Shown here piece after piece: positions 2,475 to 56,673 of a stretch of 64,000 nt of DNA. Each line of letters begins with the position of its first letter. Position 1 is the stretch's first letter. The DNA is from a virus, in the IMG/VR virus record IMGVR_UViG_2600255067_000001, positions 5,011-69,010 of that record; one strand, given 5' to 3'. Position numbers and translations under genes: made by a program. The notes below the pieces were generated by a model. It worked only from the letters and a program-made list of their open reading frames with translations, did not search any database and was not told the DNA's origin.

Positions 2475-2663
2475 CGGATTCGCTAATACATTATCAAAAC
2501 AGTTTGCATAACTGCACGGACGGAACTAACATGTACGCACACGCATTAGCGTGCCCACGGCAACCACACGCCGTTGCATCGTACAGACGCTCTATGCGGT
2601 AGCCTTTCGGCCGCCGAAATGCGTTCTGGATGAACGGCAATCGGCGACAAAGGAGAAAGAGCG

Positions 2664-3059
2664 ATGTCTGGAACCCATGACGTAGTCACGCGCGAGGCCG
2701 ACGAAGAACGCATCGCGGCATGCCTCGAAGCGTGCGCCGGGCTCAGCACCGAAGCTCTGAAGAACGGCGTTATTCACAAGATGATTTCCACCCTCGACAG
2801 CGCGAACAACGCACTGGAACAGTGGGCGGCTATGGCGATTGCTGGCGTTCCGGCGGGATTCACTCCGGTGATCGTCGGCCTTCCGCAGATCGGGCAGGAT
2901 CACCAGCAGATCATCGAGAAGCGAGGCTCAGAGATTTCGGTAATTGCGTGGCGCCCCATTCCGGGTGAGTCGGTTGGCAGTCCTGATTATCAAGGACAAG
3001 CGGATTCGCCTTCGATTGCCGAACCCAAGCCACCGGGTGGCGAGCGGGTGGCGTCATGA
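2664..3059 (+). CDS. Hypothetical protein
   Basis: 131 aa ORF with RBS AAAGGAGAAAG, high GC3, and an acidic C-terminus. Confidence 0.55.
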   Translation: MSGTHDVVTREADEERIAACLEACAGLSTEALKNGVIHKMISTLDSANNALEQWAAMAIAGVPAGFTPVIVGLPQIGQDHQQIIEKRGSEISVIAWRPIPGESVGSPDYQGQADSPSIAEPKPPGGERVAS

Positions 3060-3286
3060 GCGACGCCCCTATCCCGCTGGGGGATGAATTCCTCCCCACC
3101 GATCCACCGCGGCTGACGCTGCTCGACTACTACGCGGCACATGTGGACGTGCAGATTTACCGCCCCATCGAAACATTGCTGGCGAGGCTTGGACGTCCAC
3201 CGAGCATGAGCGAACTCGCCGCATACGTCGCCGAACTGCGCCTCATGGAGGCACAGGCGATCATGAAGGCTCGGGAGATATCGTGA
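3056..3286 (+). CDS. Hypothetical protein
   Basis: 76 aa ORF, translationally coupled (ATGA overlap) to the upstream gene. Confidence 0.5.
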   Translation: MSDAPIPLGDEFLPTDPPRLTLLDYYAAHVDVQIYRPIETLLARLGRPPSMSELAAYVAELRLMEAQAIMKAREIS

Positions 3287-3627
3287 CGGAGACGAACTGC
3301 AAGGAAGCCGTTCTCGCGGCTCTCGGTCGTTACCCCCTGACCATCGCAGAACTCGTTCATGAGACAGGTTTTGCGAAGCGCACAATCAACGGTGTGATCA
3401 AGGCGCTTCACGAGGCGGAACGTATCCACATCGACCACTTCGAAAACTCGATGACGAGCACGATCTCGAACTCGGTTCCGGCGTACATCCTTGGCAACGG
3501 GGTTGACGCCAAACGACGACGAGCTTCAAACAAGGTTCTCTGTGCGCGGTATCGAGAGAAACTGAGGCAGCAACCGCGAGGCTCATTCCCGCTCGGCGAT
3601 GTCTGGCATAACGTCGCCTCAGCGTAG
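3283..3627 (+). CDS. Hypothetical protein with a winged-helix-like motif (LTIAELVHETGFAKRTINGVIKAL)
   Basis: 114 aa ORF, coupled to the upstream ORF. HTH-like segment. Confidence 0.5.
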   Translation: MTETNCKEAVLAALGRYPLTIAELVHETGFAKRTINGVIKALHEAERIHIDHFENSMTSTISNSVPAYILGNGVDAKRRRASNKVLCARYREKLRQQPRGSFPLGDVWHNVASA

Positions 3628-3629
3628 GT

Positions 3630-4145
3630 TCAGCGGGCCGCAGCAGCTTCGCTCGCGGCCCACTCCTGCCACCGCTTGATCACTGCGGCGTTTGCGCGGC
3701 AACCGGTGAGGTTTTCGGTGTCGGTGCGGGCAACGTCTTGGGCTGGAACGGGCGCTGCATGAGTTCCGCCGGCGGCGTCGGGAAGCGGCATACCTGTGGC
3801 GGCAGCGTCGTAGAGCACGCGGAAAGAGCCAGGAAGATCGGGAGTAGTAGCCGGGACATAGAACGGCACCTTTTGGTAGATGGTTTTTCCTTGGTCGTGG
3901 ATCACCTTCAGTTGCGTGACGACCTTCGTTTGAACCTGCGTCGTCACGGCGCCCTGCTTCGCGTCCACCTTCTGCACAGCCTTCGCCGTTGCGACCTTCT
4001 CTGCTTGCCACTGCGTCGTCACGCGTGCGGCACCGAAATGCCACCCGAGCGCGAACAGCACGAAGGCAACGAGGGCCACGAGAGCGATGCGCCAGTGCGC
4101 GCCGACCGCGCGCAACGCTGCCACGATTGCGGTGATGATGAACAT
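3630..4145 (-). CDS. Rz-like i-spanin (lysis protein B type)
   Basis: 171 aa with an N-terminal hydrophobic anchor and a long periplasmic Q/K/T-rich coiled coil (TTQWQAEKVATAKAVQKVDAKQG...). It is the last gene of the lysis cassette. Confidence 0.55.
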   Translation of the reverse strand: MFIITAIVAALRAVGAHWRIALVALVAFVLFALGWHFGAARVTTQWQAEKVATAKAVQKVDAKQGAVTTQVQTKVVTQLKVIHDQGKTIYQKVPFYVPATTPDLPGSFRVLYDAAATGMPLPDAAGGTHAAPVPAQDVARTDTENLTGCRANAAVIKRWQEWAASEAAAAR

Positions 4146-4147
4146 GG

Positions 4148-4357
4148 TCAGCCCCCGAGTTTCTTGCCGGCGCCCACGGACGCAATCAGCACGCCGACGC
4201 CCACGCCGTACTGTTGCAAATCGAACGGCTTGCCGGTGAGTACCGAGTACACCTCGAGCCCCATGCCGAGCACGAACGCAGCGGCACCGAGCGCATAGGC
4301 CGGTTCCAACGTCTTGTTGTCGTCGCCTGTGACGAGTTCCATCAGTTTTTGCAGCAT
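4148..4357 (-). CDS. Small two-TM membrane protein, putative holin
   Basis: 69 aa, two hydrophobic helices (LGAAAFVLGMGLEVYSV / VGVGVLIASVGAG) and a charged C-terminus. Sits between lysozyme and Rz-like genes. Confidence 0.5.
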   Translation of the reverse strand: MLQKLMELVTGDDNKTLEPAYALGAAAFVLGMGLEVYSVLTGKPFDLQQYGVGVGVLIASVGAGKKLGG

Positions 4358-4364
4358 GACGTCC

Positions 4365-4928
4365 TCAATGGGTCAACTGGCTGTGCATCTCGTCTGCCGA
4401 GAACACGAAGCCGGGGGTGCGCGGAAAGGCCTGGAAGAGCCACACGGGGAGGCTCATGGCGTGGATACCGTGGTCCTTGTGGCGGTGGAATTTCGAGTGC
4501 AGGACGAGCATGTTCGCCATGCTGTCGACGAATGTCTCGGGATGCGCCGGGTCGAAGGCGTGCCAGTCGAAACCGCGCGCGGCTGCGAGCGTGACGATGA
4601 TCCAAAGCAGCGACTGGCGGGCGTCATACGTCTCGCCGGTCGGCTGGTCCGTCTCGATGTCCAGCACCGGCAGAGTGGCAACCTCGCCGATAGCAACGCC
4701 CTTCACGAGGCGCCAGTCGACGGCCCCGCTAAAAGCCCACTCAACGAAGATGTGGTGGTACTCGACGCCCTCCTTCTGGCCGCTGATTGCGCACGGCAAG
4801 CCGGCCGCGTGCCCCGCTTTCTTCGTCGCGCGGAATACGGCCGACTCGGTGCGCGGCGGATGATCGGGATAGAAGACGTCTTCGGTGATGGTGTCGTGGT
4901 GTTCGTGCTCGTGGCTGACGGTCGTCAT
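4365..4928 (-). CDS. Histidine-rich hypothetical protein (MTTVSHEHEHH...EYHHIFVEW...HSKFHRHKDHGIH), possible metal-binding or nuclease
   Basis: High-GC3 ORF beginning at an internal Met of track ORF 4365..5219. Embedded in the lysis cassette and preceded by a hairpin. Confidence 0.45.
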   Translation of the reverse strand: MTTVSHEHEHHDTITEDVFYPDHPPRTESAVFRATKKAGHAAGLPCAISGQKEGVEYHHIFVEWAFSGAVDWRLVKGVAIGEVATLPVLDIETDQPTGETYDARQSLLWIIVTLAAARGFDWHAFDPAHPETFVDSMANMLVLHSKFHRHKDHGIHAMSLPVWLFQAFPRTPGFVFSADEMHSQLTH

Positions 4929-4944
4929 GGGAGGGAGGAATTGA

Positions 4945-4968
4945 AAAAGCCGCCCGGAGGCGGCTTTG
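4945..4968 (-). terminator. Hairpin (gccgcc-tccg-ggcggc) plus T-run between the lysozyme and the His-rich gene. Member of a repeated motif family.
   Basis: aaaaagccgcccggaggcggctttgtgagg. A near-identical element occurs at about 11907-11940. Confidence 0.5.
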
Positions 4969-4990
4969 TGAGGAAGGGAGACGGGATGAG

Positions 4991-5440
4991 CTACGCAGTG
5001 GGCATGACGCCGCTTTCCATCGCTTTGCAGAGGCGTACGGAGCGGTCGCCAACCTGCTTGTACCAGGCCGATGCCTTCATGCCGGCCGCGGCAATGGCGT
5101 AGGCGCCACGCTGGACGGCAGCCAGCGTGTTTTTGAAGCCGAGCAGCTTGTCGACGCCCAGGTTGAAGGCCATGTTGGCAATCACGCGCTGCCGGACCTC
5201 GTCGAGCTTGCGCCACCACGGCAGATGAAGATCGAGCCCGGCGAACGTGACAGTGAGGTCGTGATCCAGAAGTTGGTCAACCTGCGCATCGTTGAGCGGA
5301 AATTTCCACCCCGCAGGCAGCGGCGAGGCGAGCAGGTTGTGCCCTACTCCAGTGGTCGGAATGCCCTTCGTGTCGAGATACTTGACGTAGCGCACGCCCT
5401 CGTCACGACGCAGTTCCTTGTCCATCAAATCGAGGTTCAT
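4991..5440 (-). CDS. Phage lysozyme (T4-lysozyme-like, GH24 endolysin)
   Basis: 149 aa with motifs EGVRYVKYLDTKGIPTTGVGHNL and ANMAFNLGV, characteristic of lysozyme family endolysins. Confidence 0.8.
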   Translation of the reverse strand: MNLDLMDKELRRDEGVRYVKYLDTKGIPTTGVGHNLLASPLPAGWKFPLNDAQVDQLLDHDLTVTFAGLDLHLPWWRKLDEVRQRVIANMAFNLGVDKLLGFKNTLAAVQRGAYAIAAAGMKASAWYKQVGDRSVRLCKAMESGVMPTA

Positions 5441-5757
5441 TTCTTGTCCGCCTTCGCATCGAGCTTGTCGTCGATGCGTTCGAGCTTCGCGAACACGGCC
5501 TTGATGGCGTCGTTGAAGGCGTCGATAGCCTTTTGCATTTGCGTGTTCGGAACGTAGGTTTCGGCCACGTGCAACTTGTGGTCAGCCAGGGCGTCTTTCA
5601 GCGCGACTATCTGCTTGTGAGCGCCCTCAATCGCTTCGTCGCGCTTTACGTCACGCGCATCCGCCTGCGACTGCTGCCGACGGAATAGCCACCAAACAAC
5701 GGTGCCGGCGCCAGTGGCGGCCGTGCACCCGACTGCGGCTACGGAAGCCCAATCCAT
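5437..5757 (-). CDS. Lysis-associated membrane protein (N-terminal TM plus coiled coil; holin, antiholin or spanin-like)
   Basis: 106 aa. Has an N-terminal TM (VAAVGCTAATGAGTVVWWLF) followed by a charged helical region. It is the first gene of the lysis cassette and its end overlaps the lysozyme start. Confidence 0.5.
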   Translation of the reverse strand: MDWASVAAVGCTAATGAGTVVWWLFRRQQSQADARDVKRDEAIEGAHKQIVALKDALADHKLHVAETYVPNTQMQKAIDAFNDAIKAVFAKLERIDDKLDAKADKK

Positions 5758-5876
5758 GCAAATCCCCGAGGAAGTGGCCGCCTAGCGACGGCGCTGGTTA
5801 AAAAACTTGCACACTTTTCTGCACATGTGTTATCGTGCGCCGCATGTTGATAACGCGTTAGCACAAAGGTGAGCAA

Positions 5877-6626
5877 ATGAAAAAAGCAAAGACGGTTGTG
5901 AAGGTGATCGCCGCGGCTGCACTGTGCTGCGCCGGTACGGCACGCGCGGAGAGCTGGTTTCAGTTCGACGGTGGCCCCGCGCTAACGTCCGCGACGAAGG
6001 TTGGCGATGGCATCTACTATTCGCGCGGCTTCAGCCATGACACGCCGAACGGCTCATACGGGTTCCGCGCGGGCATCCAGTTCAACGCCATCGAGCCCGA
6101 TCACTGGATTCCGGGCGTGCGTGCGCACCTTGCCTATTACAACTTCGGCAAGGTGCGCTGGTCGTCAATGAACCCGCAGGACTCCGGGGACTTCACCTCG
6201 GAAGGCAAGGTCGGCGGCTACAACTCAGTCACCCTTTCCTGCAACGACTCGAACTGCGGCACCTTCCGCCGCTTCGACTCGGTCGGTGGCATCCAGGCTA
6301 TCGCGCTGACCGTCGAACCGTACTGGGACGTCGGCGGCGGCTGGCAGATCGGCGTGGAGGCTGGCCCGGCGCTTTACCGCAGCGTGTGGACATCGGTGGC
6401 CACGGCCATGTCGGACGGAAAATTCGGCCCGGCCGGCACGCAGGAGACGCTCACGCACACGCCTCGAATTCAGGCCGGCGCGCTGGCGGGCGTATCGGTA
6501 TCGAGGGGCGCGTATTCCGCGCGGCTGAACTACCTCTACGCTCCGGCGAAGTTCAACGAGAACGGGCGCGACGTGCCATCCGGCCTCAAAGGTGAATGGA
6601 TGCTTTCTCTCAATTACACTTGGTGA
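5877..6626 (+). CDS. Outer-membrane beta-barrel protein with signal peptide (Ail/Lom/OmpX-superfamily-like moron)
   Basis: Signal peptide MKKAKTVVKVIAAAALCCAGTARA, alternating amphipathic strands, and C-terminal ...LSLNYTW aromatic terminus. Own promoter with conserved motif, RBS AAAGGTGAG. Confidence 0.65.
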   Translation: MKKAKTVVKVIAAAALCCAGTARAESWFQFDGGPALTSATKVGDGIYYSRGFSHDTPNGSYGFRAGIQFNAIEPDHWIPGVRAHLAYYNFGKVRWSSMNPQDSGDFTSEGKVGGYNSVTLSCNDSNCGTFRRFDSVGGIQAIALTVEPYWDVGGGWQIGVEAGPALYRSVWTSVATAMSDGKFGPAGTQETLTHTPRIQAGALAGVSVSRGAYSARLNYLYAPAKFNENGRDVPSGLKGEWMLSLNYTW

Positions 6627-10762: not shown

Positions 10763-11890
10763 TTAGACGATGGTGAGCGTGCCGCTCTTGATGATCTGCT
10801 GTGTCGTCGCAGTGAGGTCCGCCGTGCCACCGTTGAGCGTCACACCGGTGACGTTCGTTACGAGCGGCGATGCGTCATAGGCAATTTGAGCGAGCCGGCT
10901 GTACGAAAGCGAGGCGCCAATCGGCAGCGTGTTGATGTACGCCTGCAACGCTGTCGTGACGAGCGCGATGACTGCGTTATGCGTGGCAGAGTTGCCGGTC
11001 GTGGTCAGCGTCATGCCGACATTCGCTGTCTGGAGAACCGGTGCGAACACCGCGAACGTGCTCGTGATTGGCCGCACGGCATTGATCGCGTTGTAGACCG
11101 TCGAAAGAAACGACGACGGCGGGCTACCCGATCCATCGTCCACCACGACATAGAAGAATCCCATGTTCGTGGCGCCGCCGTACGTCTGATTCTCCGTCAG
11201 GGTGTAACTGACGTTCTGCTGAATGCTCGTGACCGCATATGCGACCGCGCCCTTCGTGGCCTTAGAAAGGCTCGCGATGTACGTCTGGAACCGCGCGCGG
11301 AATGCCACGTCGCTTTCGGCATTCGCGCCATTCGTGAACGGATTCGCGTTCGTGACGGTGTCGACGCCGGGGATCGCTTGATAGAGCGCGTTCACCTGAT
11401 TCGCGAGCATGTTGCCCGCAGCGCCTGCGGTGACGGCCTGCACCGTGACCGTAACGCTAGTCGTTCCCGCCGGTATTACGAACGCGTTCAGCGTTGCGCT
11501 GTATGCGGGGTTCGTTGTATCGGCCACAACAGCGTATTGCTGCGTGCCGTCCGAACTCTGCACCAGCGAGCCGACAGGGATTGTCGCCTGCGATGTCGCG
11601 GTGAAACGAGAGAACGTAACTGGCCCGGACGCATAGGACGCCGGCAAGCGCGTGACCCCGTAATCGGCCATCCACGAATCGAGGTCGCTCCCGCTACAGG
11701 TGGCCGCTCGCGTCAAACTCGCTAGATAGAGCACCAGCCCTTGCAGCCACATCACGATCGCTGCGTTCGCCTCGAGGATCGCGCGAAGCACGGAACCTAC
11801 CGCAGTGTCGATGAGGTTTGAGGCAGCCCCCTGCACTGCTGCAACAGCGTTCTCCACGACTTGCGTGAAGGTCTGTGTCTGGAACGTCAT
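10763..11890 (-). CDS. Baseplate J-like protein (Mu gp47 analogue)
   Basis: 375 aa. The size, position and sequence character match baseplate wedge J family. Confidence 0.65.
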   Translation of the reverse strand: MTFQTQTFTQVVENAVAAVQGAASNLIDTAVGSVLRAILEANAAIVMWLQGLVLYLASLTRAATCSGSDLDSWMADYGVTRLPASYASGPVTFSRFTATSQATIPVGSLVQSSDGTQQYAVVADTTNPAYSATLNAFVIPAGTTSVTVTVQAVTAGAAGNMLANQVNALYQAIPGVDTVTNANPFTNGANAESDVAFRARFQTYIASLSKATKGAVAYAVTSIQQNVSYTLTENQTYGGATNMGFFYVVVDDGSGSPPSSFLSTVYNAINAVRPITSTFAVFAPVLQTANVGMTLTTTGNSATHNAVIALVTTALQAYINTLPIGASLSYSRLAQIAYDASPLVTNVTGVTLNGGTADLTATTQQIIKSGTLTIV

Positions 11891-11956
11891 TTATTGCGAG
11901 GCCCAAAGAAAAAGCCGCCCGAAGGCGGCTTTGTGAGGAGGGGGTAACGGGACGGG

Positions 11957-20561: not shown

Positions 20562-20586
20562 AAAAAAGCCCGCTCGAAGGCGGGCT
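20562..20586 (-). terminator. Hairpin plus T-run just upstream of the sheath gene (attenuator/terminator)
   Basis: agcccgctcgaaggcgggct with flanking A-run on the plus strand. Followed on the minus strand by RBS GGAGAA and the sheath ATG. Confidence 0.5.
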
Positions 20587-24756: not shown

Positions 24757-24780
24757 AAAAGGCCCGCGCGATGGCGGGCC
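24757..24780 (-). terminator. Intrinsic attenuator hairpin between the scaffold/protease and capsid genes
   Basis: ggcccgcgcgatggcgggcc followed on the minus strand by TTTTCC, then RBS GGAGAG and the capsid ATG. Confidence 0.55.
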
Positions 24781-32021: not shown

Positions 32022-32050
32022 TTGCGTTTCTGCTAATGCGTTCGCATAAT
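32022..32050 (+). promoter_or_regulatory. Candidate rightward early promoter (TTGCGT-17-CATAAT) in the divergent control region, overlapping the conserved motif
   Basis: cTTGCGTttctgctaatgcgttcgCATAATgcacacatcg. A shared ATAATGCACACAT element also forms the -10 and start region of the TA-module promoter at about 34786. Confidence 0.4.
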
Positions 32051-32792: not shown

Positions 32793-32918
32793 ACAGATCA
32801 ACTGCTCGCGTAGCTCAAGGAGAGCACCCGCTTCTTAAGCGGAAGGCGCGTCGGCGACGGCCGAACGGTTCGATTCCCGCCGCGGGCACCAATTTTCACC
32901 ACGCCCCAAGGAGGCACC

Positions 32919-34765: not shown

Positions 34766-34794
34766 TTGACAAAGCCTTATACAAAACTAATAAT
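34766..34794 (+). promoter_or_regulatory. Sigma-70-like promoter TTGACA-16-TAATAAT for the toxin-antitoxin operon, giving a leaderless or near-leaderless mRNA
   Basis: cgcTTGACAaagccttatacaaaacTAATAATgcacacATG. The ATG lies 7 nt after the -10 element. Confidence 0.5.
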
Positions 34795-34800
34795 GCACAC

Positions 34801-35055
34801 ATGAACTCGATCCGCTGGTCACCGAAAGCAATGAAGCAGGTTCGCAAGCTGGACCGCAAAGACGGCGCTACGATTACGAAGGCCGTCGATGTGCTGGTGG
34901 CGTTCCCGAACTGCTCGAACATCAAGGCGCTGACGAACCACGAATACGGGTACCGCCTTCGGGTCGGCAACTACCGAGTGTTTTTCAACTACGACGGCGC
35001 GGTGCACGTCGTCTCTGTCGAAGAGGTCAAGAAACGCGATGAGCGCACGTACTGA
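34801..35055 (+). CDS. RelE/ParE-superfamily toxin (HigB-like, toxin-first arrangement)
   Basis: 84 aa ...GYRLRVGNYRVFFNYDGAVHVVSVEEVKKRDE typical of RelE/ParE toxins. Confidence 0.7.
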   Translation: MNSIRWSPKAMKQVRKLDRKDGATITKAVDVLVAFPNCSNIKALTNHEYGYRLRVGNYRVFFNYDGAVHVVSVEEVKKRDERTY

Positions 35056-35374
35056 ACCCCAAATCATTCGAGACGCCGCAGGGCGTCCGACTTTCGCCGT
35101 CATCCCCTACGGCGAATATCAGGAACTCGTCGGCAAGGCAGCCGAAGAGCCGTATATCCCGCACGCTGTCGTCAAGCGCGTGGTCGAAGACGGCGTTACG
35201 CCTGTGCGCGCGTGGCGTGAGCACCTTGAACTGACGCAAGCCGATGTCGCCTCGCGGCTCGGCATCTCGCAATCGGCCTACGCTCAGCAAGAGACTGCGG
35301 AGAAGCCGCGCAAATCGACGCTGAAGAAGATCGCGGACGCGCTCGGCATCTCGGTTAAGGTGCTCGACGTCTGA
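35039..35374 (+). CDS. HigA-like antitoxin with C-terminal XRE-type HTH
   Basis: 111 aa. It overlaps the toxin 3' end. HTH segment LTQADVASRLGISQSAYAQQE. The N-terminus (PTFAVIPYGEYQEL) is Phd/YefM-like. Confidence 0.65.
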   Translation: MSARTEPQIIRDAAGRPTFAVIPYGEYQELVGKAAEEPYIPHAVVKRVVEDGVTPVRAWREHLELTQADVASRLGISQSAYAQQETAEKPRKSTLKKIADALGISVKVLDV

Positions 35375-35453
35375 AGCTGGAGCGGGCTGCGAGAGTCGAA
35401 CTCGCGTAGACGGCTTGGAAGGCCGCAGCCTGACCACCTCGGCCAAGCCCGCA

Positions 35454-35531
35454 TGGTGCCCCCGGCATGGATTCGAACCCGCGACCCTTCCCTTACAGGG
35501 GGAACGCTCTGCCGTGCTGAGCTACGAGGGC
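35454..35531 (-). pseudogene. tRNA-Thr(UGU)-like sequence with a disrupted T-arm (probable pseudo-tRNA)
   Basis: Reverse complement GCCCTCGTAGCTCAGCACGGCAGAGCGTTCCCCCTGTAAGGGAAGGGTC GCGGGTTCGAATCCATGCCGGGGGCACCA. Acceptor, D and anticodon arms are good, but the T-stem cannot pair (GCGGG vs CCATG) and position 33 is C. Confidence 0.35.
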
Positions 35532-35611: not shown

Positions 35612-36297
35612 TCAAAATCGAAGAGAGCGGTCGGATTTGAACCGACGAGCGTCGCGTGGGTCCACCGCTTCGCATCCCAACCTGCTCGCAGCGTCCTGCT
35701 GGCATTCGCTCTCACGACTGCCGTTAGCTCCGCGTCCTACTTCATTCGGACTGCGCGCGGACAGAGGCGCGCCACCCTGCCGCCGGCATGCGTGAAAGCG
35801 CCCTTAACGACGGGCCGCCGGCGCGCTATGGACGCCTCACCCGGGATGTCATCCCCGGCAGTGTGCTGCGACACCTCTTGGTCTATGGCGCCGTCATCTG
35901 GTTAGCGAGGGTGGGTGCTCCTCAACCATCGGGCAAGTCTGAACCCATGCGGACCTGTCGTGCCGCTATCAACGCTGCGCCGAAACGCAGATACCGCGTG
36001 CTCAATGTGCCGTCCGGGGGTGCTCTGTGCAGCCGACCTGCACGTGACGGCATTAGCTCTCACAGAGGAGTTCGTGCGGAGAGGTCGCACGTTGCGCACC
36101 GTGGTCATTCCCGCTTGAGGTCCGCACGAACCCCTCTGTGAGAGCGCCGGGTGATCCGCATTCCGACCGGCCCGGCGCCAGTCCTCATATCCGCTGCGGT
36201 TCAGCGTTCCCGAGCCTTTCGGCCTTTTCACGGGGCATTGCGCGATCGTGGAGGCTTCCGCCTCCCGTTCTTCGCGCCAGTCGCTCACAGGTGTGAG

Positions 36298-45336: not shown

Positions 45337-46137
45337 ATGCAGAATCCGATTCGCAGCCTCTTTGCCACCGCAGCGTCCGTCGTTGCCGTGGTACTCGCCA
45401 TCATGTCTGTCCACGTCGTGCCCGCCGGGCATCGTGGAGTCGTCAAGCTGTTCGGAGACGTTCAAGACGCGCCGTTGCCGGAGGGCATCCACTTCCTCAA
45501 CCCGCTCGCGCGAGTGGTCGACTTCAATGTGCGCTTCCAGAGCGCAACAGCAACGAAGGCCGAAGGCGGCACCGCCGATTTGCAGGAGGTCTACGAAGAC
45601 ATCACCGTGAACTATGAATACGATCCGGCACACGCACCCTACGTGTACAACAATTTCGGTGACGACGCCGACATCGAGTCGAAGTTCATCATCCCGGCCC
45701 TGTACGAATCGTTCAAGGCCGTGACCTCGCAGTACACCGCTGAACAACTCGTGACGCAGCGCGCGAAAGTCTCGCAGGACATCGTGCAGAAGCTTCAATC
45801 GAAGCTTGCGAAGTACCGCATCATCGTCTCGGACATCAACGTCCAGAATTTCCACTTCGACTCTCAGTTCGCGGCTGCCGTGCGTCAGAAGGTCGTCGCA
45901 GGACAGAACCGGCTCACCGCCGAGCAGCAGCTCGAGACGGCCAAGGTGACGGCGCAGCAACGCATCGTCGAAGCCGAGGGCCAGGCGAAGGCAATTGCGA
46001 TTCAGGCTCAGGCGATCCAGCAACAGGGCGGACAGGAGTACGTCGCCCTCGAAGCAGTGAAGAAGTGGGATGGCAAGTTGCCGGCGCAGTGGTCCGGTGC
46101 CGCAATCCCGTTCGTCAACTTCGCAACGCAGAAGTAA
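45337..46137 (+). CDS. SPFH / band-7 (prohibitin, HflK/C-like) membrane protein
   Basis: 266 aa with N-terminal TM (AASVVAVVLAIMSV), an SPFH core (VVPAGHRGVVKLFG...) and a C-terminal coiled coil (AEQQLETAKVTAQQRIVEAEGQAKAIAIQAQA). Confidence 0.75.
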   Translation: MQNPIRSLFATAASVVAVVLAIMSVHVVPAGHRGVVKLFGDVQDAPLPEGIHFLNPLARVVDFNVRFQSATATKAEGGTADLQEVYEDITVNYEYDPAHAPYVYNNFGDDADIESKFIIPALYESFKAVTSQYTAEQLVTQRAKVSQDIVQKLQSKLAKYRIIVSDINVQNFHFDSQFAAAVRQKVVAGQNRLTAEQQLETAKVTAQQRIVEAEGQAKAIAIQAQAIQQQGGQEYVALEAVKKWDGKLPAQWSGAAIPFVNFATQK

Positions 46138-46163
46138 CCCGCAGAAAAATCGTGCACACCCTC

Positions 46164-46215
46164 TTGCACATGTGTTATCACGCTGCTATTCTGCTAACCC
46201 ATTAGCGCACGGGTG
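46164..46215 (+). promoter_or_regulatory. Sigma-70-like promoter (TTGCAC-17-TATTCT) with conserved motif copies flanking
   Basis: cTTGCACatgtgttatcacgctgcTATTCTgctaacccattagcgcacgggtgtgcac. Confidence 0.4.
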
Positions 46216-46568
46216 TGCACAGCAATCCCACCCACCGCGCCCGAGTGAGGCTTCAGCCGGTGAGCCGTGCGCGTCCATCGCGTTAATCATCCGGCCTGTT
46301 TCGGACCGCTGCGGACGGCAGCGGCATGTGCGGGGCGCGTCGCGCCTCTTCTTAGGGAGATGGGGATATGGGAATCCTGATCGGTGTGTCTTTCGTGGCC
46401 GGCGCCTGCTTCGGCGCCATTGTCATCAGCCTGTTGCGTGACGGCGCGGAGACGTTGCGCGAGGGATCGTAACGCCGTGGACATCGGCACATGGTTGTGC
46501 GTCGCTGGCGCGGTCGTCGTGGCCGCAGCCATCGGCGCGCTGCTCGGATGGTTGAGCGCGAGGAAGAA

Positions 46569-48603: not shown

Positions 48604-49484
48604 ACGACGACAAGCAGCCGGTGGCATTCATGTACCGCGACGGAGGTGCTTGGGAACTGGCCTTCGCTGACGACAAGGGCGAACTGTCAGTTCCGCATGC
48701 ACGGAAATACGCGCTTTATACCTATCCCGCCCATACCGAGAGCGCAGCGCCGGTCGATATGGTGCTGTTCTGCCCGAAGTGCGGCGTACAGCACATCGAC
48801 GGGCCGGAATGGCACAACGAAGCAGATGCGAGTATCGGCCTGCAAATCAAAGAAGTCGTCACATGGACCAACCCACCGCACCGTTCGCACCTGTGCCATC
48901 ACTGCGGCTTCATCTGGCGCCCGGCCGACGTGCCCACCAACGGTGTCGCGAGCATCAAAACATGCGGTAAGAACGATTCGCCGCCTCCCGCATCCTCGCC
49001 GGTGAGCGCAGCGCCGGTTGGCGCATACCCGTCTCGGCTTTTCAACGAGTCCGATGAATCACTCGCGCGGCGCGTAGATTCGTGGCACAGACGCAATCCC
49101 GCACCCTCGCCGGTGAGCGCGGATAGTGCAGCGCTCGCAGTGCTTAAGAGACTCGTTGCCTTGAAAGATCACAAGGACGAATACGGCAAAACGGAGCACT
49201 ACGAACAGTGGCAACCGGTAGCGTGGGAAGACGCGCGCGTTGTGATAGCTCCCGCACCCTCACCGGTGAGCGGGGCGGATGAGCGGGCGGCGCATATTTC
49301 CGATTATCTGAGCGCGCCGGGAATGTGGGCTCAGGTCTATTGCTGCGCGGTGTTTGTTCGTGGGTGGCCGTCCGACATGGCGCGCGGCGCCGCTGACGTG
49401 GCTGTCAAGGAGTTCGGTGATGCTGCGTGCAAGACGGTTGTGGATTTGACCAATACGCTTGATGAAGTGCTTCGGGTGGACTGA
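48600..49484 (+). CDS. Zinc-ribbon protein with three PAPSPVS repeats
   Basis: 294 aa, CPKCG...CHHCG zinc ribbon, followed by three direct repeats (cccgcaccctcRccggtgagcg) about 120-155 bp apart. Confidence 0.5.
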   Translation: MNDDKQPVAFMYRDGGAWELAFADDKGELSVPHARKYALYTYPAHTESAAPVDMVLFCPKCGVQHIDGPEWHNEADASIGLQIKEVVTWTNPPHRSHLCHHCGFIWRPADVPTNGVASIKTCGKNDSPPPASSPVSAAPVGAYPSRLFNESDESLARRVDSWHRRNPAPSPVSADSAALAVLKRLVALKDHKDEYGKTEHYEQWQPVAWEDARVVIAPAPSPVSGADERAAHISDYLSAPGMWAQVYCCAVFVRGWPSDMARGAADVAVKEFGDAACKTVVDLTNTLDEVLRVD

Positions 49485-52615: not shown

Positions 52616-52662
52616 TTGCATACGCGTTATCACTGCGCTAGTATCATGCTAACGCATGTGCG
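52616..52662 (+). promoter_or_regulatory. Sigma-70-like promoter (TTGCAT-17-TAGTAT) followed immediately by conserved motif GCTAACGCATGTGCG
   Basis: cTTGCATacgcgttatcactgcgcTAGTATcatgctaacgcatgtgcgtgaac. Confidence 0.45.
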
Positions 52663-52682: not shown

Positions 52683-52982
52683 ATGGACTGCGCTGTCATG
52701 TACGACCTTGGCCGGCACCTGGCACAAGTGGATCGCGAAGACGCCTATGAGGAATGGCTCGAAACAGCGGTCTGCGCTCGTCAGGACCGCATGGACGGCA
52801 TGGGCGTTGACCAGCTCGCCGAGACGCTGACGGACCTCGTCGGCGGCACGCCTGAATTCGACGCATTGTTCGACACCGACGGGAACCTCCTGCCCGGTGC
52901 CGAGCGCACCTTGCGCACATGGGTTAGCAGAGACGAAACCATCCGCAGCATCCGGCTTCGCCTCACTCGCAGTGCCCACTAA
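52683..52982 (+). CDS. Hypothetical protein
   Basis: 99 aa, RBS GAGGTGGAG. Confidence 0.45.
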   Translation: MDCAVMYDLGRHLAQVDREDAYEEWLETAVCARQDRMDGMGVDQLAETLTDLVGGTPEFDALFDTDGNLLPGAERTLRTWVSRDETIRSIRLRLTRSAH

Positions 52983-54060: not shown

Positions 54061-54659
54061 TGCTCGAGTTCGACGAACCGACGCACACCTACCGCCTTGA
54101 CGGCCGGATAGTTCCGTCCGTCACGCGGTTGTTGGACAGCGCGCGGCTCATTGATCTGTCGGGCATCCCCCCCGAAACGCTTGAGCGCAAGCGGTTGATC
54201 GGCTCGGCGGTGCACAAGGCGTGCGAACTGGACGACCTCGGCGTGCTCGACGAGTCGAGCATCGCGCCGGTGATCGAGCCGTACTTCTCGGCCTATCGCA
54301 AGTTCAAGCGCGAGACCGGCTTCGTGCCGCTCCTGATCGAGCACCGCGTCGCGCATCCGGCGCTCGGTTACGCCGGAACGCTGGATCGTACGGGCCTTGT
54401 GCTCGATGTGCCCGAGCAGATCGACCTCAAGACCACGAGCGCCCTGTCGCCTGCCGTCGGCGTGCAAACCGCGGCCTATGAGGCAGCGCTGTATTCCGAC
54501 CCGTCCTATGACGGGCCTCGCAACCTGGGGCGAAAGGCGCTGCAGCTTCGCAACGATGGGACGTATCGCCTCGAAACCTACAAAGACCCGCGCGACTTCG
54601 CTGTGTTCGCGGCTCTTGCAACCGTCTACCACTGGAAGGAGAAGAACAATGTCCGCTGA
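54060..54659 (+). CDS. PD-(D/E)XK exonuclease (YqaJ/lambda-Exo-like partner of RecT)
   Basis: 199 aa, catalytic triad context ...GTLDRTGLVLDVPEQIDLKTT (D..E.K). Start overlaps RecT stop. Confidence 0.6.
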   Translation: MLEFDEPTHTYRLDGRIVPSVTRLLDSARLIDLSGIPPETLERKRLIGSAVHKACELDDLGVLDESSIAPVIEPYFSAYRKFKRETGFVPLLIEHRVAHPALGYAGTLDRTGLVLDVPEQIDLKTTSALSPAVGVQTAAYEAALYSDPSYDGPRNLGRKALQLRNDGTYRLETYKDPRDFAVFAALATVYHWKEKNNVR

Positions 54660-55377
54660 AGCCACGCTTACGGAAGCGCCAGCAATCCCGCAAACCATCA
54701 CCCTCGGCGCGCCGAACATCGCGCTCATCGGTCAGTCGTCGGCTTCGCTGAAAGTCGCTCAGGCGTACGTGATTGACAGCACCGAAGTGGCCGAACTCGC
54801 GTCGCAAGACCTCGGGCGCGTCAAGTCGCTGTTCAAGAGCGTCGAAGAAGAGCGTCGCAAGATCGTCGATCCGCTCAACACTGCCGTGAAGGCGGTCAAC
54901 GACCTCTTCCGGCCCGCGACGCAGTACCTCGAACAAGCCGAAAGCACGCTGAAACGCGGACTGCTGGCTTGGAACCAAAAAGTCGAGCGCGAGGCGCGGG
55001 AGGAGCAGGCTGCGGCCGAAGCCACTGCACGCGCCGAACGTGAGCGGCTGCAATCGCAGGCAACGGAACTCGCGGCCCAAGGCCATACCGAGGCCGCCGA
55101 AGCTGTGCGCGAGACGGCGCAAGTCATCACCGCGCCCGTGGTGGCCGCGCCGAAAGCGAAGGTCACCGGCATCTCGTCGCGCGGCACGTGGAAGGCAAAG
55201 GTCACCGACAAGATGACGCTCATCAAGTTCGTCGCCGAGCACCCGGAGTTCGAGCACTTGCTCGACGCGAACATGCAGCAGCTCAACGCGCTCGCGAAGG
55301 CCATGAAGGAGAAGATGAAGGTCGGCGGCGTCGAGCCCTTCGAGGAGAAGAGCATCGCGTCTCGCGCCGCGGCCTAA
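54649..55377 (+). CDS. Hypothetical coiled-coil protein in the recombination module
   Basis: 242 aa, RBS GGAGAAG, long helical Ala/Glu-rich centre. Confidence 0.5.
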   Translation: MSAEATLTEAPAIPQTITLGAPNIALIGQSSASLKVAQAYVIDSTEVAELASQDLGRVKSLFKSVEEERRKIVDPLNTAVKAVNDLFRPATQYLEQAESTLKRGLLAWNQKVEREAREEQAAAEATARAERERLQSQATELAAQGHTEAAEAVRETAQVITAPVVAAPKAKVTGISSRGTWKAKVTDKMTLIKFVAEHPEFEHLLDANMQQLNALAKAMKEKMKVGGVEPFEEKSIASRAAA

Positions 55378-55380
55378 CAG

Positions 55381-55782
55381 GTGCAGGCCACGTTCATATT
55401 GCGCGGCGACGGGCACGCCAAGCGGCTCTACGCGTTCCTGAAGGCGCACTGGCGGGCGATGGCGGCGGCAGGTAAGCCGCTTGCCGTCGAGGTGCGCCCG
55501 TACAAGGACAAGCGGACCATCGAGCAGAACAAAAAACTGCACGCCATGATCCGCGACATTGCTGAGCAGGCATGGGTCAGCGGGCGCCAGCACAACGAGG
55601 AGGAATGGAAGGAGTACATACGACGTCGTTTTATTGGCGTCGAGGACTTCCATCTTCCAAACGGTTGCCGCATTGAACGCGGCATCTCAACCACTTCCCT
55701 TGACATAGAGGAGTTCGCCAAACTGATCACCATGGTTGAAGCATGGGCGGTCACCGACCTCGGCGTTGAGTTCACTGAATGA
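55381..55782 (+). CDS. ninB: NinB/Orf-family recombination protein
   Basis: 133 aa ...PYKDKRTIEQNKKLHAMIRDIAEQ... NinB signature. Confidence 0.7.
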   Translation: MQATFILRGDGHAKRLYAFLKAHWRAMAAAGKPLAVEVRPYKDKRTIEQNKKLHAMIRDIAEQAWVSGRQHNEEEWKEYIRRRFIGVEDFHLPNGCRIERGISTTSLDIEEFAKLITMVEAWAVTDLGVEFTE

Positions 55783-55949
55783 CTACACATAGCACCCGCC
55801 CGGCGTCCATCGCGAAGTTTCGCGAGACGACATCCAAGATGGTCCCGTTCAACTGGTCACAGCGCACATGCAAGGCATGCCGTCGGCGCCGATCCATCGG
55901 CCAGTTTCCAGACGGCGGCGATATCTGCCTCTCCTGCACCAAGGGTTAG
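55779..55949 (+). CDS. Small Cys4 zinc-ribbon protein
   Basis: 56 aa ...RTCKACRRRSIGQFPDGGDICLSCTKG, ATGA-coupled to ninB. Confidence 0.4.
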   Translation: MTTHSTRPASIAKFRETTSKMVPFNWSQRTCKACRRRRSIGQFPDGGDICLSCTKG

Positions 55950-55990
55950 AATTAGCGCTGCCGTGGTTGCGCCTCAAAGCGCAAACACTT

Positions 55991-56018
55991 GGGGACCGTC
56001 TAGGCGGTCCCTTTTTTT
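55991..56018 (+). terminator. Rho-independent terminator
   Basis: ggggaccgtctaggcggtccc followed by ttttttt. Confidence 0.7.
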
Positions 56019-56027
56019 CATACTTTT

Positions 56028-56068
56028 TTGCTAACGTTGTTGCACACACGTTATTTCGTTGCTAATAT
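56028..56068 (+). promoter_or_regulatory. Tandem overlapping sigma-70-like promoters (TTGCTA-17-TTATTT and TTGCAC-17-TAATAT) with conserved motif
   Basis: tTTGCTAacgttgttgcacacacgTTATTTcgttgcTAATATtcg. Confidence 0.45.
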
Positions 56069-56125
56069 TCGTTCCATCACAACCGGTGCAAAAAGCACCA
56101 CAAACCACGGCAAAAAGGAACGACG

Positions 56126-56356
56126 ATGAACAACAAGAACTTCCGCATAATATCGAGCCCGCTCAGGCCCGTAAGCTACCTGCTCGCGACCGGCGGCGTA
56201 GGCTTCGGGTATGAGGCAGACGGGCACGTCATGATTGAAGCGGGTGGCACGTTCGCACCCATCGAGGTCGAGAAGTATTTGCAGGACAACGGCGCGGCAT
56301 TCGAAGTCGCTCGTACGCACGGCCTCAAGGCCGGCCGCGCCCGGTTCAACGCGTGA
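56126..56356 (+). CDS. Hypothetical protein
   Basis: 76 aa, RBS AAAAAGGAA. Confidence 0.45.
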   Translation: MNNKNFRIISSPLRPVSYLLATGGVGFGYEADGHVMIEAGGTFAPIEVEKYLQDNGAAFEVARTHGLKAGRARFNA

Positions 56357-56364
56357 GGTCCGCC

Positions 56365-56637
56365 ATGACGACCACTCGCGAACAGTTCTATCAGGTGCGC
56401 CGCGCGCACCGCGAGATGCGCAGCGCGCTCAAGCTCCAGTGCGCATCGGCCTCTCGCATGGCGTTCCGTGCCGCAATCATGCGCATGGCGCCGATCAGCC
56501 TGCCTATCGACGTGGCCCGCGCCGCAGTCGAAAGCATAATACCGGGGCACGACTGGTTCCCTTCCCTCACGCAAGCAATCGAGCGTCAACAACGACGCGC
56601 GCTTTCGCTCGCCAGTCGTGCTAACGCGTGTGCATGA
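56365..56637 (+). CDS. Hypothetical protein
   Basis: 90 aa MTTTREQFYQVRRAHREMRSALKLQ... Confidence 0.4.
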   Translation: MTTTREQFYQVRRAHREMRSALKLQCASASRMAFRAAIMRMAPISLPIDVARAAVESIIPGHDWFPSLTQAIERQQRRALSLASRANACA

Positions 56638-56673
56638 TCGTTACCAACCTGCGTTAAAGAGAGGATCACCACG

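Follow-up and report, generated by a model that had tools for sequence, protein, structure and literature searches.

The recurrence of a short sequence across the intergenic regions of a prophage raises the question of whether its copies belong to one regulatory system and, if so, which protein reads them. The window, the whole 64,000-nt stretch of DNA analyzed here, derives from a Paraburkholderia kururiensis prophage of more than 62 kb. The initial annotation described a repeated 15-base motif and proposed a dispersed operator or promoter family for one phage regulator, with three candidates: an HTH repressor (Rep), a cro-like protein and a 44796 protein (g168). The repetition is real. Allowing up to two mismatches and considering both strands, GMTAACRCRTRTGCA occurs 16 times, compared with 1.22 ± 1.07 in 100 dinucleotide-preserving shuffles (largest value 4). 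A position weight matrix (PWM) made from the window copies finds 15 sites at a score of at least 15, versus 0.6 in shuffles, and a second PWM, trained on 62 sites from related phages only with the window left out, re-finds 23 window matches at a score of at least 12, versus 0.87 in shuffles. Strong sites are intergenic in 14 of 15 cases, while intergenic sequence makes up ~14% of the window (binomial 1.4e-11). All of the positions originally listed carry copies (2536, 5820/5849, 32031 as a variant, 36832/36905/36917, 37921 as a weak copy, 40158, 42306, 43023, 46165, 46192, 52617, 52648, 56029/56041, and 56620). Two additional matches are intragenic, one at 52914 that is conserved in relatives and a weak one at 59436 that is probably due to chance. 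In total, putative operators occupy ~18 places over the prophage, mostly over promoters (Table 1).

The unit of the motif is a 16-bp imperfect palindrome, tGMTAACG/CRTnnGCA, and not a free-standing asymmetric 15-mer; the sequence first described corresponds to its half or core. One half is TGMTAAC, and the other is either the same, the fully symmetric variant being TGCTAACGCGTTAGCA, or a two-base variant, TGCAYAY. Conservation of this variant half is stricter than a role as a tolerated weak half-site would demand, and it may double as a -35 element or as the site of another protein. Copies are present in both orientations. Matches to TTGC-N19-TANNNT number six in the window versus 2.7 expected, a count that is not significant in itself (6 of 100 shuffles reach 6), and a motif copy overlaps or adjoins five of the six, all on the plus strand (2504, 36904, 46164, 52616, and 56040). 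The promoters that had been quoted are present in the sequence, but their description as clear sigma-70 promoters was somewhat generous: a strict TTGACA/TATAAT scan calls only 36904 among them, because TTGCAY matches just three of the six positions of the -35 hexamer. The usual layout is a copy covering the -35/spacer with another at ~+1, at a distance of 28-31 bp, and in three promoter regions the centers of paired copies are 27-30 bp apart. Other copies lie in short gene junctions (5-40 bp) without a promoter. Almost all copies had been described as lying upstream of rightward early or accessory genes, but they are also found before the leftward lysis cassette and in the promoterless junctions.

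Table 1. Features of the window; "operator" denotes a putative Rep operator, and L numbers denote related phage loci.
Feature	Position	Strand	Context
Palindromic operator variant CGCTAATACATTATCA	2481-2496	.	Directly upstream of P2504 -35; PWM score 19.0
Promoter TTGCAT-17-TAACAT (P2504)	2504-2532	+	Faces 2664-3627 operon
Operator cGCTAATGCGTGTGCG	2536-2551	-	4 nt past P2504 -10, ~+1; motif scan and both PWMs
Operator GATAACACATGTGCA	5820-5835	-	Between lysis cassette (leftward, 5757) and OMP gene; 0 mismatches
Palindromic operator TGATAACGCGTTAGCA	5848-5863	.	14 nt before OMP gene start; 28 bp center-to-center from 5820 site
Promoter TTGCGT-17-CATAAT	32022-32050	+	Read directly; divergent junction with structural operon
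Operator variant TGCTAATGCGTTCGCA	32031-32046		In spacer of 32022 promoter; PWM-supported; perfect palindrome TGCTAACGCGTTAGCA at this position in relatives
Operator tGCTAACGCGTGTGCT	36832-36847	-	Downstream of rep-operon terminator; PWM score 25.8; conserved in L001, L129, L130, L131, L139, L141
Promoter TTGCTA-17-TATACT	36904-36932	+	Made of overlapping motif copies 36905-36920 and 36917-36932; conserved in relatives
Weak motif copy	36942-36956		Beside 36904 promoter
Rep, 142-aa XRE/Cro-CI-type HTH prophage repressor	37412-37840	-	Proposed motif binder; recognition helix AGTSQSYLSQ
P_rep, TTGACG-17-AATAAT	37883-37911	-	Repressor-operon promoter; -35 and -10 conserved in relatives
Weak operator CGCTAATGCTTTCGCA	37921-37936	+	rep/cro spacer, directly upstream of P_rep -35; PWM score 9
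Half-site TGCTAAC	37956-37962		Before cro ribosome-binding site
cro-like 80-aa protein	37976-38218	+	Divergent from rep; does not track operator type
Operator aGATAACGCATATGCA	40157-40172	+	37-bp gap between DUF6475 and N6-methyltransferase genes; no promoter recognized; 0 mismatches, score 26.6
Operator TGCTAATGCATGTGCGTTATT	42305-42325	.	20-bp palindrome made of two overlapping copies; before RecA-dependent nuclease/HTH_39 genes; block conserved in 6 loci, sequence upstream of it diverges
Operator TGCTAACGCATATGCA	43022-43037	+	Spans HTH_39 stop codon and next gene's start codon; no promoter recognized; conserved in L001, L129, L130, L139
g168, AlpA/Q-like antiterminator	44796-45302	+	Sequence and predicted-structure matches; neighbor, not the motif's specificity determinant
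Promoter TTGCAC-17-TATTCT (P46164)	46164-46192	+	Downstream of g168/Band_7; same layout in all relatives
Operator TGATAACACATGTGCA	46165-46180	-	Covers -35 and spacer of P46164; score 27.8
Palindromic operator TGCTAACCCATTAGCG	46192-46207	.	~+1 of P46164; 27 bp center-to-center from 46165-46180 copy
Promoter TTGCAT-17-TAGTAT (P52616)	52616-52644	+	TTGC-N19-TANNNT match
Operator TGATAACGCGTATGCA	52617-52632	-	Covers -35 and spacer of P52616
Operator TGCTAACGCATGTGCG	52647-52662	+	~+1 of P52616; 30 bp center-to-center from 52617-52632 copy; the two copies are near-perfect inverted repeats in L139, L141
Intragenic copy GCTAACCCATGTGCG	52914-52929	-	Inside 52656-52982 gene; also in L139, L141; coding and operator constraint inseparable
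Overlapping promoters TTGCTA-17-TTATTT and TTGCAC-17-TAATAT	56029-56068	+	Directly after terminator 55991-56012
Operators	56029-56044 (weak), 56041-56056		In 56029-56068 promoter region; conserved in L139, L141
Operator TGCTAACGCGTGTGCA	56619-56634	+	40 nt before sliding-clamp-like gene (56674); no promoter recognized; 0 mismatches, score 26.5

Conservation in the Burkholderia and Cupriavidus relatives resembles a footprint: flanks have diverged while the sites stay at matching positions in L001, L129, L130/131, L139, and L141 (75-90% protein identity), as well as in the Cupriavidus prophages L133-135 (Rep 49% identical). Among 80 viral loci recovered via the unrelated neighboring gene DUF6475, at least five strong sites were found in four, which are exactly those with a Rep homologue of at least 48% identity, while the remaining 76 had 0-1 sites. 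No motif sites were found in three loci encoding distant Rep-like proteins with different helices, and the motif was likewise not found in L002. A contig retrieved by the exact DNA motif alone (L016) encodes a Rep homologue adjoining the motif.

The most informative comparison was provided by 13 loci recovered via a g168 homologue. Every related locus whose Rep keeps the helix TSQSYLSQ carries the motif; within this set of 13, such loci have 5-10 strong sites each, or 4 in the case of L229, whose contig stops short of where rep would lie. L230/231, with the Rep helix VGRVYITH, have no strong motif sites; L230 has 10 matches to TGATAACNNGTTATCA (0.2 expected), a dispersed 16-bp palindrome of the form TGAKAAC-NN-GTTMTCA. 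L232/234, with the helix TNENYLSS, have 0-1 strong motif sites, and L234 has 11 matches to TGCGAATNNATTCGCA (1.6 expected), a dispersed 16-bp palindrome of the form TGCKAAT-NN-ATTCGCA. In relative position the alternative palindromes match the motif copies, among others over the -35/spacer of the promoter that follows g168. In L136 and L138, which are other elements with distant Rep homologues that keep the helix, inverted TGMTAAY half-sites lie directly upstream of rep. This co-variation between motif and recognition helix is the decisive evidence, and it is the reason for choosing Rep as the binder. Judged from these sequence comparisons, the motif is likely to be a dispersed operator family of the prophage's own XRE-type repressor. 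The idea of an operator or promoter family for one phage regulator is therefore supported, the comparison selecting the HTH repressor among the three candidates.

The properties of Rep are those of a phage repressor. It matches a PHROG transcriptional repressor (E 6.5e-15) and, by profile, 'Phage repressor protein CI' (7nkv, E 2e-4), and its AlphaFold2 (AF2) model, which retrieves SinR, 434, P22 C2, and Salmonella phage Rep in Foldseek (probability 0.85-1.0), has the predicted fold of dimeric operator-binding repressors. An XRE/Cro-CI-type HTH domain is followed by two helices and a disordered tail, and no LexA-like cleavage domain was seen in this 142-aa protein, which has no Pfam match. Ten homologues, 42-100% identical, all keep the recognition helix unchanged. 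A Rep dimer would bind the 16-bp imperfect palindrome, whose symmetry fits. The putative operators cover the -35 hexamer and spacer, or ~+1, of five or six promoters (2504, 32022, 36904, 46164, 52616, and 56040), where bound Rep would exclude RNA polymerase, and the paired copies, roughly three helical turns apart, would allow cooperative binding on one DNA face. The copies in promoterless junctions (40157, 43022, and 56619) may act as roadblocks to read-through or may just add to local Rep occupancy.

Some features count against reading the copies as Rep operators. Copies had been attributed to the repressor/cro spacer, but it contains no strong ones, only the weak copy at 37921 and the half-site at 37956, whereas the best operators of a classical repressor are in this spacer. 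The GCTAAT/GCTAAC halves of the spacer are conserved in L001, L129, and L130, and no cro promoter could be assigned with confidence. TGMTAAY elements are also spaced 8, 14, and 21 bp apart; a single rigid dimer does not account for these spacings. Among the operator-associated genes, the OMP moron and the int-proximal operon resemble lysogenic-conversion genes, for which expression, and not repression, would be expected in a lysogen.

All motif-bearing loci have rep, the cro-like gene, and g168 together, and the case against the latter two thus rests on sequence co-variation and not on presence or absence. It seems unlikely that the cro-like protein, instead of Rep, is the main binder and shuts many early promoters as infection proceeds. 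Its gene diverges from rep in the manner of lambdoid switches, whose Cro and CI use common operators, a homologue is found in every motif-bearing locus for which that region is available, and by our reading its sequence resembles small Cro/YdaS-type HTH proteins, although it has no Pfam or PHROG match. However, variation in cro-like sequence is as great within the set of motif-bearing loci as between this set and the two other operator groups, and the protein of L228, from the motif group, has most of its putative DNA-reading segment in common with that of L230, from the TGAKAAC group; furthermore, L136 and L138 both have half-sites beside rep, and L138 lacks a cro-like gene. Operators used jointly by Rep and Cro would be compatible with Rep as the binder. 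The 44796 protein, g168, is not region-4- or sigma-like as had been suggested, but an AlpA/Q-type antiterminator by sequence match (phmmer to 7xya_G, E 0.77 over 125 aa) and predicted structure (AF2 pLDDT 76.5; Foldseek 7xya_G, probability 1.00, TM 0.67-0.71, E 3.5e-4; next match E 0.76). The promoter copies could accordingly be imagined as its loading sites, given that AlpA's own element is located in the -35/-10 interval (PMC9371919), that GTTAKC is in the spacer of P46164, P52616, and P56040, and that P46164 is directly downstream of g168 and followed by a ~170-nt leader and a terminator-like hairpin (46328-46345). We regard this as very improbable: among Cupriavidus-type relatives the g168 HTH (HKRTIQRYEP) is identical across all three operator groups and does not track operator type, whereas the window g168 has an HTH unlike that of the Cupriavidus homologues and yet the motif is identical. 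The sites are also dyad-symmetric, numerous, and present at ~+1 and in promoterless junctions, while AlpA recognizes a 6-bp element in monomeric form (PMC9371919). Another element at P46164 may still serve g168; TTTGC before the -10 is shared, for the most part, by the Cupriavidus-type promoters of all operator groups. HTH_39 was rejected as a candidate, being absent from motif-bearing Cupriavidus loci.

Alternatively, there may be no dedicated phage regulator, the copies having arisen through duplication of a single promoter cassette or being sites of a host protein. A 35-nt block with 83% identity is common to 5800-5834 and 46145-46179, suggesting common descent of these two sequences, and TTGC-type -35 hexamers form part of the motif. 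This explanation is nevertheless very unlikely, as copies occur in both orientations, at ~+1, and in promoterless junctions, and neither L002 nor the 76 DUF6475 loci carry the array. In heteroimmune relatives, a different consensus has replaced the motif at all sites together; this implicates a trans-acting factor encoded with the immunity region. Retention of the motif across phages of Paraburkholderia, Burkholderia, and Cupriavidus, with other variants in related phages, argues against a host factor. We attach similarly little weight to specificity being set by another small immunity-region product, such as the 49-codon ORF/RNA at 36975-37124 or the 83-aa protein whose gene lies downstream of rep. 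Both are uncharacterized and adjoin rep and the 36832-36956 operator cluster, but neither product has a recognizable DNA-binding domain, no homologue of the 83-aa protein could be detected in motif-bearing Cupriavidus loci, and the co-variation maps neatly onto the Rep recognition helix.

With Rep as the probable binder, the system can be compared with known ones. The lambdoid phages (lambda, 434, P22) likewise have an XRE-type HTH repressor gene divergent from a small cro-like gene and palindromic operators of ~16 bp that overlap -35/-10 elements, but their operators cluster at OL/OR beside the repressor gene, whereas the strong copies here are at 2.5, 5.8, 32, 36.8, and 40-56.6 kb, the rep/cro spacer holds only a weak copy, and Rep is without the LexA-like domain. 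In the Streptomyces phage phiC31, many intergenic places of the early region carry copies of a 17-bp palindromic repressor site, although host, repressor family, and site sequence are unrelated to those of this prophage. Many operators of phage P1 overlap promoters and some are paired. Its C1 repressor has 22 operators with a 17-bp consensus scattered over the genome (PMC8546580), so that, as proposed here, one immunity repressor controls many operons via dispersed operators. Unlike the 16-bp imperfect palindromes and Cro/CI fold of this prophage, the operators of P1 are asymmetric (ATTGCTCTAATAAATTT) and its C1 is not XRE-type; profile searches revealed no sequence relationship between Rep and C1, and no evidence was found here of an antirepressor/antisense RNA immunity circuit such as that of P1. 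Cluster A mycobacteriophages (L5, Bxb1, TipsytheTRex) have more than 20 repressor sites in promoters and short intergenic gaps, and their immunity groups differ in site consensus (PMC9283540, PMC6550527), much as three repressor-helix groups here have three operator variants and some sites lie in promoterless 5-40 bp junctions. Their stoperators are 13 bp long and asymmetric, are bound by a monomer that has two DNA-binding domains, and are oriented along the direction of transcription (PMC9283540), whereas the sites described here are dyad-symmetric and the one after DUF6475 flips between lineages (window 40158, plus; L225 5994, minus); a stoperator-like block to elongation is a candidate role for them. 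We found no published description of dispersed-operator control for this phage group, but control of this kind is known from phage P1 and mycobacteriophage L5. In this prophage, it would silence many separate early, accessory, and lysis units in the lysogen, and not only PL/PR-like promoters beside the repressor gene.

The 15-base repeat that the initial annotation had described in the intergenic regions of the window is over-represented there. Its consensus has 16 matches with at most two mismatches where 1.2 are expected, a weight matrix recovers 15 sites at a score of at least 15 against 0.6 in shuffles, and a matrix trained on 62 sites from other phages only gives 23 window hits at a score of at least 12 (0.87 expected). 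Fourteen of the 15 strong sites are intergenic, in a window of which intergenic DNA makes up 14% (P = 1.4e-11). All of the positions listed initially carry a copy, those at 32031 and 37921 being variants and the latter weak. About 18 sites span 2.5-56.6 kb across 12 intergenic regions, a distribution that places many predicted repressor sites at separate transcription units across the genome. Within the rightward early region, six sites lie on the plus and six on the minus strand. A k-mer enrichment test under a maximum-order Markov model failed to pick out the motif, and an exact-motif scan of viral contigs returned mostly chance single matches, the exceptions being a known relative and the contig L016.

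Alignment of 56 distinct sites, drawn from the window and from its relatives, adds one base 5′ of the motif and reveals dyad symmetry, the unit reading t-G-M-T-A-A-C-G followed by C-R-T-n-n-G-C-A. Positions 1-3 mirror 16-14 and positions 6-8 mirror 11-9, so that six of eight mirrored pairs are complementary in typical sites and the halves differ only at the central two bases (TA on the left, AY on the right when read on the other strand). The operator is thus dyad-symmetric and falls within the approximately 14-18 bp of XRE/Cro-CI-type repressor sites. A minority of sites are perfect or near-perfect palindromes of the left half, for example TGATAACGCGTTAGCA at 5848 and TGCTAACCCATTAGCG at 46192 and, in relatives, TGCTAACGCGTTAGCA. 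The motif proposed at the outset is therefore real, but its asymmetric unit is better described as one consensus half-site joined to a conserved variant half-site. Conservation of the variant half, TGCAYAY, is stricter than a merely tolerated half-site would require, and TGMTAAY hexamers also recur at spacings of 8, 14 and 21 bp. Together with the weakness of the operators in the spacer between the repressor gene (rep) and cro, these features are compatible with the involvement of another protein or with an additional function.

The motif had also been described as built into TTGC-type promoters. Five of the six TTGC-N19-TANNNT elements in the window carry or abut a copy, all of them rightward (2504, 36904, 46164, 52616 and 56040), although the count alone is not significant (2.7 expected, with 6 of 100 shuffles reaching six). 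The copies lie either over the -35/spacer or at about +1, and the operator thus overlaps the core promoter, as with XRE/Cro-CI-type repressors. At 32022, a variant copy lies within the spacer of TTGCGT-17-CATAAT. In a recurrent design, one operator covers the -35 hexamer and spacer (TTGCAYAYGYGTTATC) and is followed by the -10 and by a second operator 0-4 nt past it, with centers 27-30 bp apart (46165/46192, 52617/52647 and 5820/5848); in Cupriavidus and B. pseudomallei relatives the start-to-start distances are 29 and 31 bp, and at the RecT-operon promoter of B. pseudomallei and B. cenocepacia relatives the two copies are near-perfect inverted repeats. Because TTGCAY matches the -35 consensus at only three of six positions, a strict sigma-70 scan, which showed no enrichment, missed these putative promoters. 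The copies at 40157, 43022 and 56619 occupy gaps of 5-100 bp between co-directional genes, where no promoter was recognized; that at 43022 overlaps the stop codon of one gene and the start codon of the next. The motif-built promoter at 36904 faces a 49-codon ORF (36975-37124, containing CKEC) or a small RNA, which ends at the same hairpin (37090-37113) as the leftward rep operon, and a possible leftward promoter (CATAAT near 36964) opposes it, with starts approximately 18 bp apart.

Sites are conserved at matching positions in relatives while the adjacent non-coding sequence has diverged. This holds for a related viral contig (L001/L143/L223, Rep identity 82%), a metagenomic contig (L129, 87%) and prophages of B. 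multivorans (L130/131), B. pseudomallei (L139/140) and B. cenocepacia (L141/142). Shared copies lie 3′ of the rep terminator and of g168 (44796-45302), and 5′ of the RecA-dependent nuclease gene, the RecT operon and a sliding-clamp-like gene. Two further positions are before the methyltransferases, in L129 and L141, and at the HTH_39 junction, where no copy was detected in L141. The Cupriavidus prophages L133-135 have few early genes in common with the window and a Rep of 49% identity, and their motif is unchanged. Further searches added little: a profile of the RecA-dependent nuclease against genome contigs yielded no confirmed relatives, g219 against viral contigs yielded one distant locus (L002) in which the motif is absent, and HTH_39 against viral contigs yielded nothing.

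Four proteins were weighed as binders of the motif: HTH_39, g168, the cro-like protein and Rep, the HTH repressor encoded at 37412-37840. Two strong sites flank the HTH_39 gene (42680-43027), but that gene is absent from the motif-bearing Cupriavidus loci. In a first unbiased set of 80 viral loci, retrieved through the neighboring DUF6475 gene, the four loci with at least five strong sites were exactly those with a Rep homologue of at least 48% identity, and the other 76 had none or one. Three loci whose remote Rep-like proteins have different recognition helices had no sites. A second unbiased set comprised 13 loci retrieved through g168 homologues. Seven of these encode a Rep with the recognition helix TSQSYLSQ and carry 5-10 strong sites each; an eighth, L229, carries four on a contig that stops short of the rep position, and L233, which also falls short of the rep region, has no strong sites. 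The two loci with helix VGRVYITH (L230/231) have no strong motif sites, and in L230 TGATAACNNGTTATCA is matched ten times (0.2 expected). Of the two TNENYLSS loci (L232/234), L234 matches TGCGAATNNATTCGCA at eleven places (1.6 expected). TSQSYLSQ is thus paired with the window motif, VGRVYITH with TGAKAAC-NN-GTTMTCA and TNENYLSS with TGCKAAT-NN-ATTCGCA. The alternative palindromes are found at corresponding positions: 3′ of the rep operon and of cro, within the rep/cro spacer, over the -35/spacer of the promoter 3′ of g168, and as pairs further downstream. Separately, the first large gene 3′ of that promoter in L232 and L234, which represent one presumably heteroimmune relative, contains a 27-bp unit repeated six times in tandem (11018-11190).

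All ten database homologues of Rep, the most distant at 42% identity, keep its recognition helix unchanged. This invariance and the co-variation over both locus sets indicate that the operator tracks the DNA-reading helix of Rep, which favors the HTH repressor among the regulators suggested by the initial annotation. The cro-like protein, in contrast, varies as much within the TSQSYLSQ group as between groups. Site consensus appears to shift with repressor specificity among these related phages, which would be expected to be heteroimmune. L016, found through the DNA motif alone, encodes a Rep homologue beside it, and in L136 and L138, two loci in other elements whose remote Rep homologues keep the helix, inverted TGMTAAY half-sites lie directly 5′ of rep.

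The protein at 44796 had been put forward as a region-4-like regulator. It is instead an AlpA/Q-type antiterminator and not a relative of sigma region 4: its sole PDB sequence match is AlpA, over 125 residues (E 0.77), and its AlphaFold model (pLDDT 76.5) retrieves AlpA chains at probability 1.00 and TM 0.67-0.71, with the next match at E 0.76. Since AlpA recognizes, as a monomer, a 6-bp element located between the -35 and the -10 (PMC9371919), g168 was initially a serious rival for the promoter-spacer copies. GTTAKC is present in the spacers of the promoters at 46164, 52616 and 56040, with a leader containing a terminator-like hairpin at 46164 only. However, the g168 HTH segment CERIAEKVGVHKRTIQRYEP is identical across the three operator groups in Cupriavidus-type loci and a different g168 HTH accompanies the same motif elsewhere, so the element does not co-vary with the helix by which g168 reads DNA. 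Other explanations were rejected. Methyltransferase targets would not be expected to be confined to intergenic DNA, an RNA-level 5′-leader element is at odds with untranscribed copies in -35 regions and with the presence of both orientations, and GMTAAC as the -10 or -35 of an alternative sigma factor lacks a conserved partner hexamer 5′ of single sites.

The region 44796-46367 has a Q-type late-promoter-like layout: g168, a Band_7 gene inserted in some phages, the promoter at 46164 and a leader of approximately 170 nt. A 50-nt block of the leader (46247-46296) shows almost no differences between P. kururiensis, B. pseudomallei, B. cenocepacia and a metagenomic relative, and is followed by a hairpin of variable sequence and then by the terminator-like hairpin (46328-46345), just 5′ of the gene for a 34-aa membrane protein. 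The leader region has no Rfam match, and Cupriavidus relatives are without a leader of this type.

Rep matches PHROG repressor families (E 6.5e-15) and, by PDB profile, phage CI (E 2e-4); no Pfam match was found at E<=0.01. Its AF2 model has helices at 3-51, and Foldseek retrieves SinR, 434, P22 C2 and C.AhdI at probabilities of 0.85-1.0, with weak E-values (0.04-0.4). Sequence and model indicate a five-helix Cro/CI (XRE) HTH domain at the N terminus, followed by two more helices and a disordered tail. The rep/cro spacer contains a good leftward rep promoter (TTGACG-17-AATAAT), and its only operators are the weak CGCTAATGCTTTCGCA (score 9), just upstream of the rep -35, and a half-site TGCTAAC preceding the ribosome-binding site of cro, whose own promoter could not be placed. 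Just 3′ of cro, a consensus-like minus-strand promoter (TTGAAA-17-TAGCAT, 38243-38271) points antisense into cro and adjoins a weak motif-like site (38214-38228).

We propose that a Rep dimer would bind each 16-mer and, at no fewer than five or six promoters, occlude the start site together with the -35/spacer, that the roughly three helical turns between paired sites would favor cooperative binding, and that many separate units would be silenced in the lysogen as a result. More speculatively, sites at promoter-less junctions may stop read-through. A Pfam search found no LexA-like cleavage domain in Rep, so induction probably proceeds via an antirepressor or another route, for which no factor was identified. 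That Rep acts beyond a block of initiation seems to us unlikely. If it did, the junction operators at 40157, 43022 and 56619 could be elongation roadblocks, TGCAYAY could be a dual-use element serving as -35 hexamer and repressor half-site at once, and Rep, sigma-70 and the AlpA-like antiterminator could compete directly for one 16-bp stretch at the 46164 promoter. Such roadblocks would represent a stoperator-like function exerted in a Gram-negative myovirus prophage by a symmetric dimeric XRE repressor.

Almost the entire window is a single prophage of more than 62 kb. Its Rep protein has an exact match on P. kururiensis contig BBJI01000001 (GCA_000739795.1), Megablast found no close relative among GenBank phages, and an Rfam scan of the whole window returned tRNAs and nothing else. 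The RtcB RNA ligase (57254-58582) and the four tRNAs look like a tRNA-repair or replacement kit against host anticodon nucleases. Beside tRNA-Met lies a 25-nt inverted repeat of 96% complementarity (36056-36080/36121-36145), followed by 132 nt (36145-36276) for which an unrelated Burkholderia phage, Bcep22, has an unannotated counterpart of 92% identity. The prophage also encodes a ParE-toxin and HTH_3-antitoxin pair (34766-35374; Pfam assignments from the source annotation) with a near-consensus promoter, TTGACA-17-AATAAT, at 34766-34794. GC-rich hairpins flanked by A and T runs recur at several gene ends and look like one family of bidirectional terminators. The 48567-49484 gene contains three copies of a 29-nt repeat (48985-49277; spacing 111 and 153 nt; 83-86% identity to the reference copy), which implies a repeated peptide module in its product. 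An operator lies directly 5′ of the 56674-57276 gene, whose 200-aa product has B. pseudomallei and B. cenocepacia prophage homologues with a DNA polymerase III beta (sliding clamp) domain.

Features of the prophage and its flank, in window coordinates
Feature	Position	Direction	Content
Host dus gene	171-1163		Pfam Dus
Tyrosine integrase	1287-2474
Lysis cassette	5757 to 3630	leftward	lysozyme at 4991-5440
Outer-membrane-protein gene	5877-6626	rightward
Myovirus structural operon	32008 to 6886	leftward	terminase, portal, sheath, tape measure
Small genes and four tRNAs	between structural operon and repressor gene	rightward (small genes)
tRNAs	32804-32891, 35378-35452, 35454-35531, 36298-36374		Lys-CTT (unusually long, 88 nt), Gly-TCC, Thr-TGT, Met-CAT
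Repressor gene	37412-37840	leftward
Long early region	runs beyond 64000	rightward	replication, two methyltransferases, RecA-dependent nuclease, HTH_39, RusA, Band_7, RecT, NinB, RtcB
GC-rich hairpins (AAAAAGCCCGCTCGAAGGCGGGCT-like)	4943-4978, 11908-11943, 20563-20586, 24757-24780, 37090-37113

Dispersed operators are known from phage P1, whose C1 repressor has 22 of them (PMC8546580), and from cluster A mycobacteriophages, with operators and stoperators whose consensus varies from one immunity group to another (PMC9283540, PMC6550527). The arrangement described here is similar, but it differs from both families in its XRE-type protein, its dyad-symmetric sites and a site orientation that is independent of transcription direction; 3′ of the DUF6475 gene, for example, orientation flips between lineages. 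Family and structure searches with Rep gave XRE-type repressors only, with no homology to C1 or gp71. The sites do not fit the definition of stoperators (asymmetric, monomer-bound, with orientation tied to transcription), since they are pseudo-palindromic and occur in both orientations, and while the mycobacteriophage protein is monomeric and two-domain, Rep is proposed to be a symmetric dimeric XRE repressor. The distance of the strong operators from the repressor gene sets the system apart from lambdoid switches. We found no published description of the motif or phage family: literature searches with the motif strings matched 16S rRNA sequences only, and those on Burkholderia prophage operators retrieved nothing on either.

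These results provide a testable regulatory map for large temperate phages of an uncharacterized family that occurs in Paraburkholderia, Burkholderia (B. pseudomallei, B. cenocepacia and B. multivorans among others) and Cupriavidus. A single small repressor seems to keep a dozen transcription units silent, among them those for lysis, for methyltransferases, for recombination, for tRNA repair (RtcB) and for an outer-membrane-protein moron. The three pairs of repressor helix and operator form a natural specificity series that makes specificity directly testable. With these pairs, sequence alone could suffice for predicting superinfection immunity groups, and they could also be mined for orthogonal repressor-operator parts for Burkholderia genetics. 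Few dispersed-operator immunity systems have been described, and this one would add a dyad-symmetric, XRE-based example.
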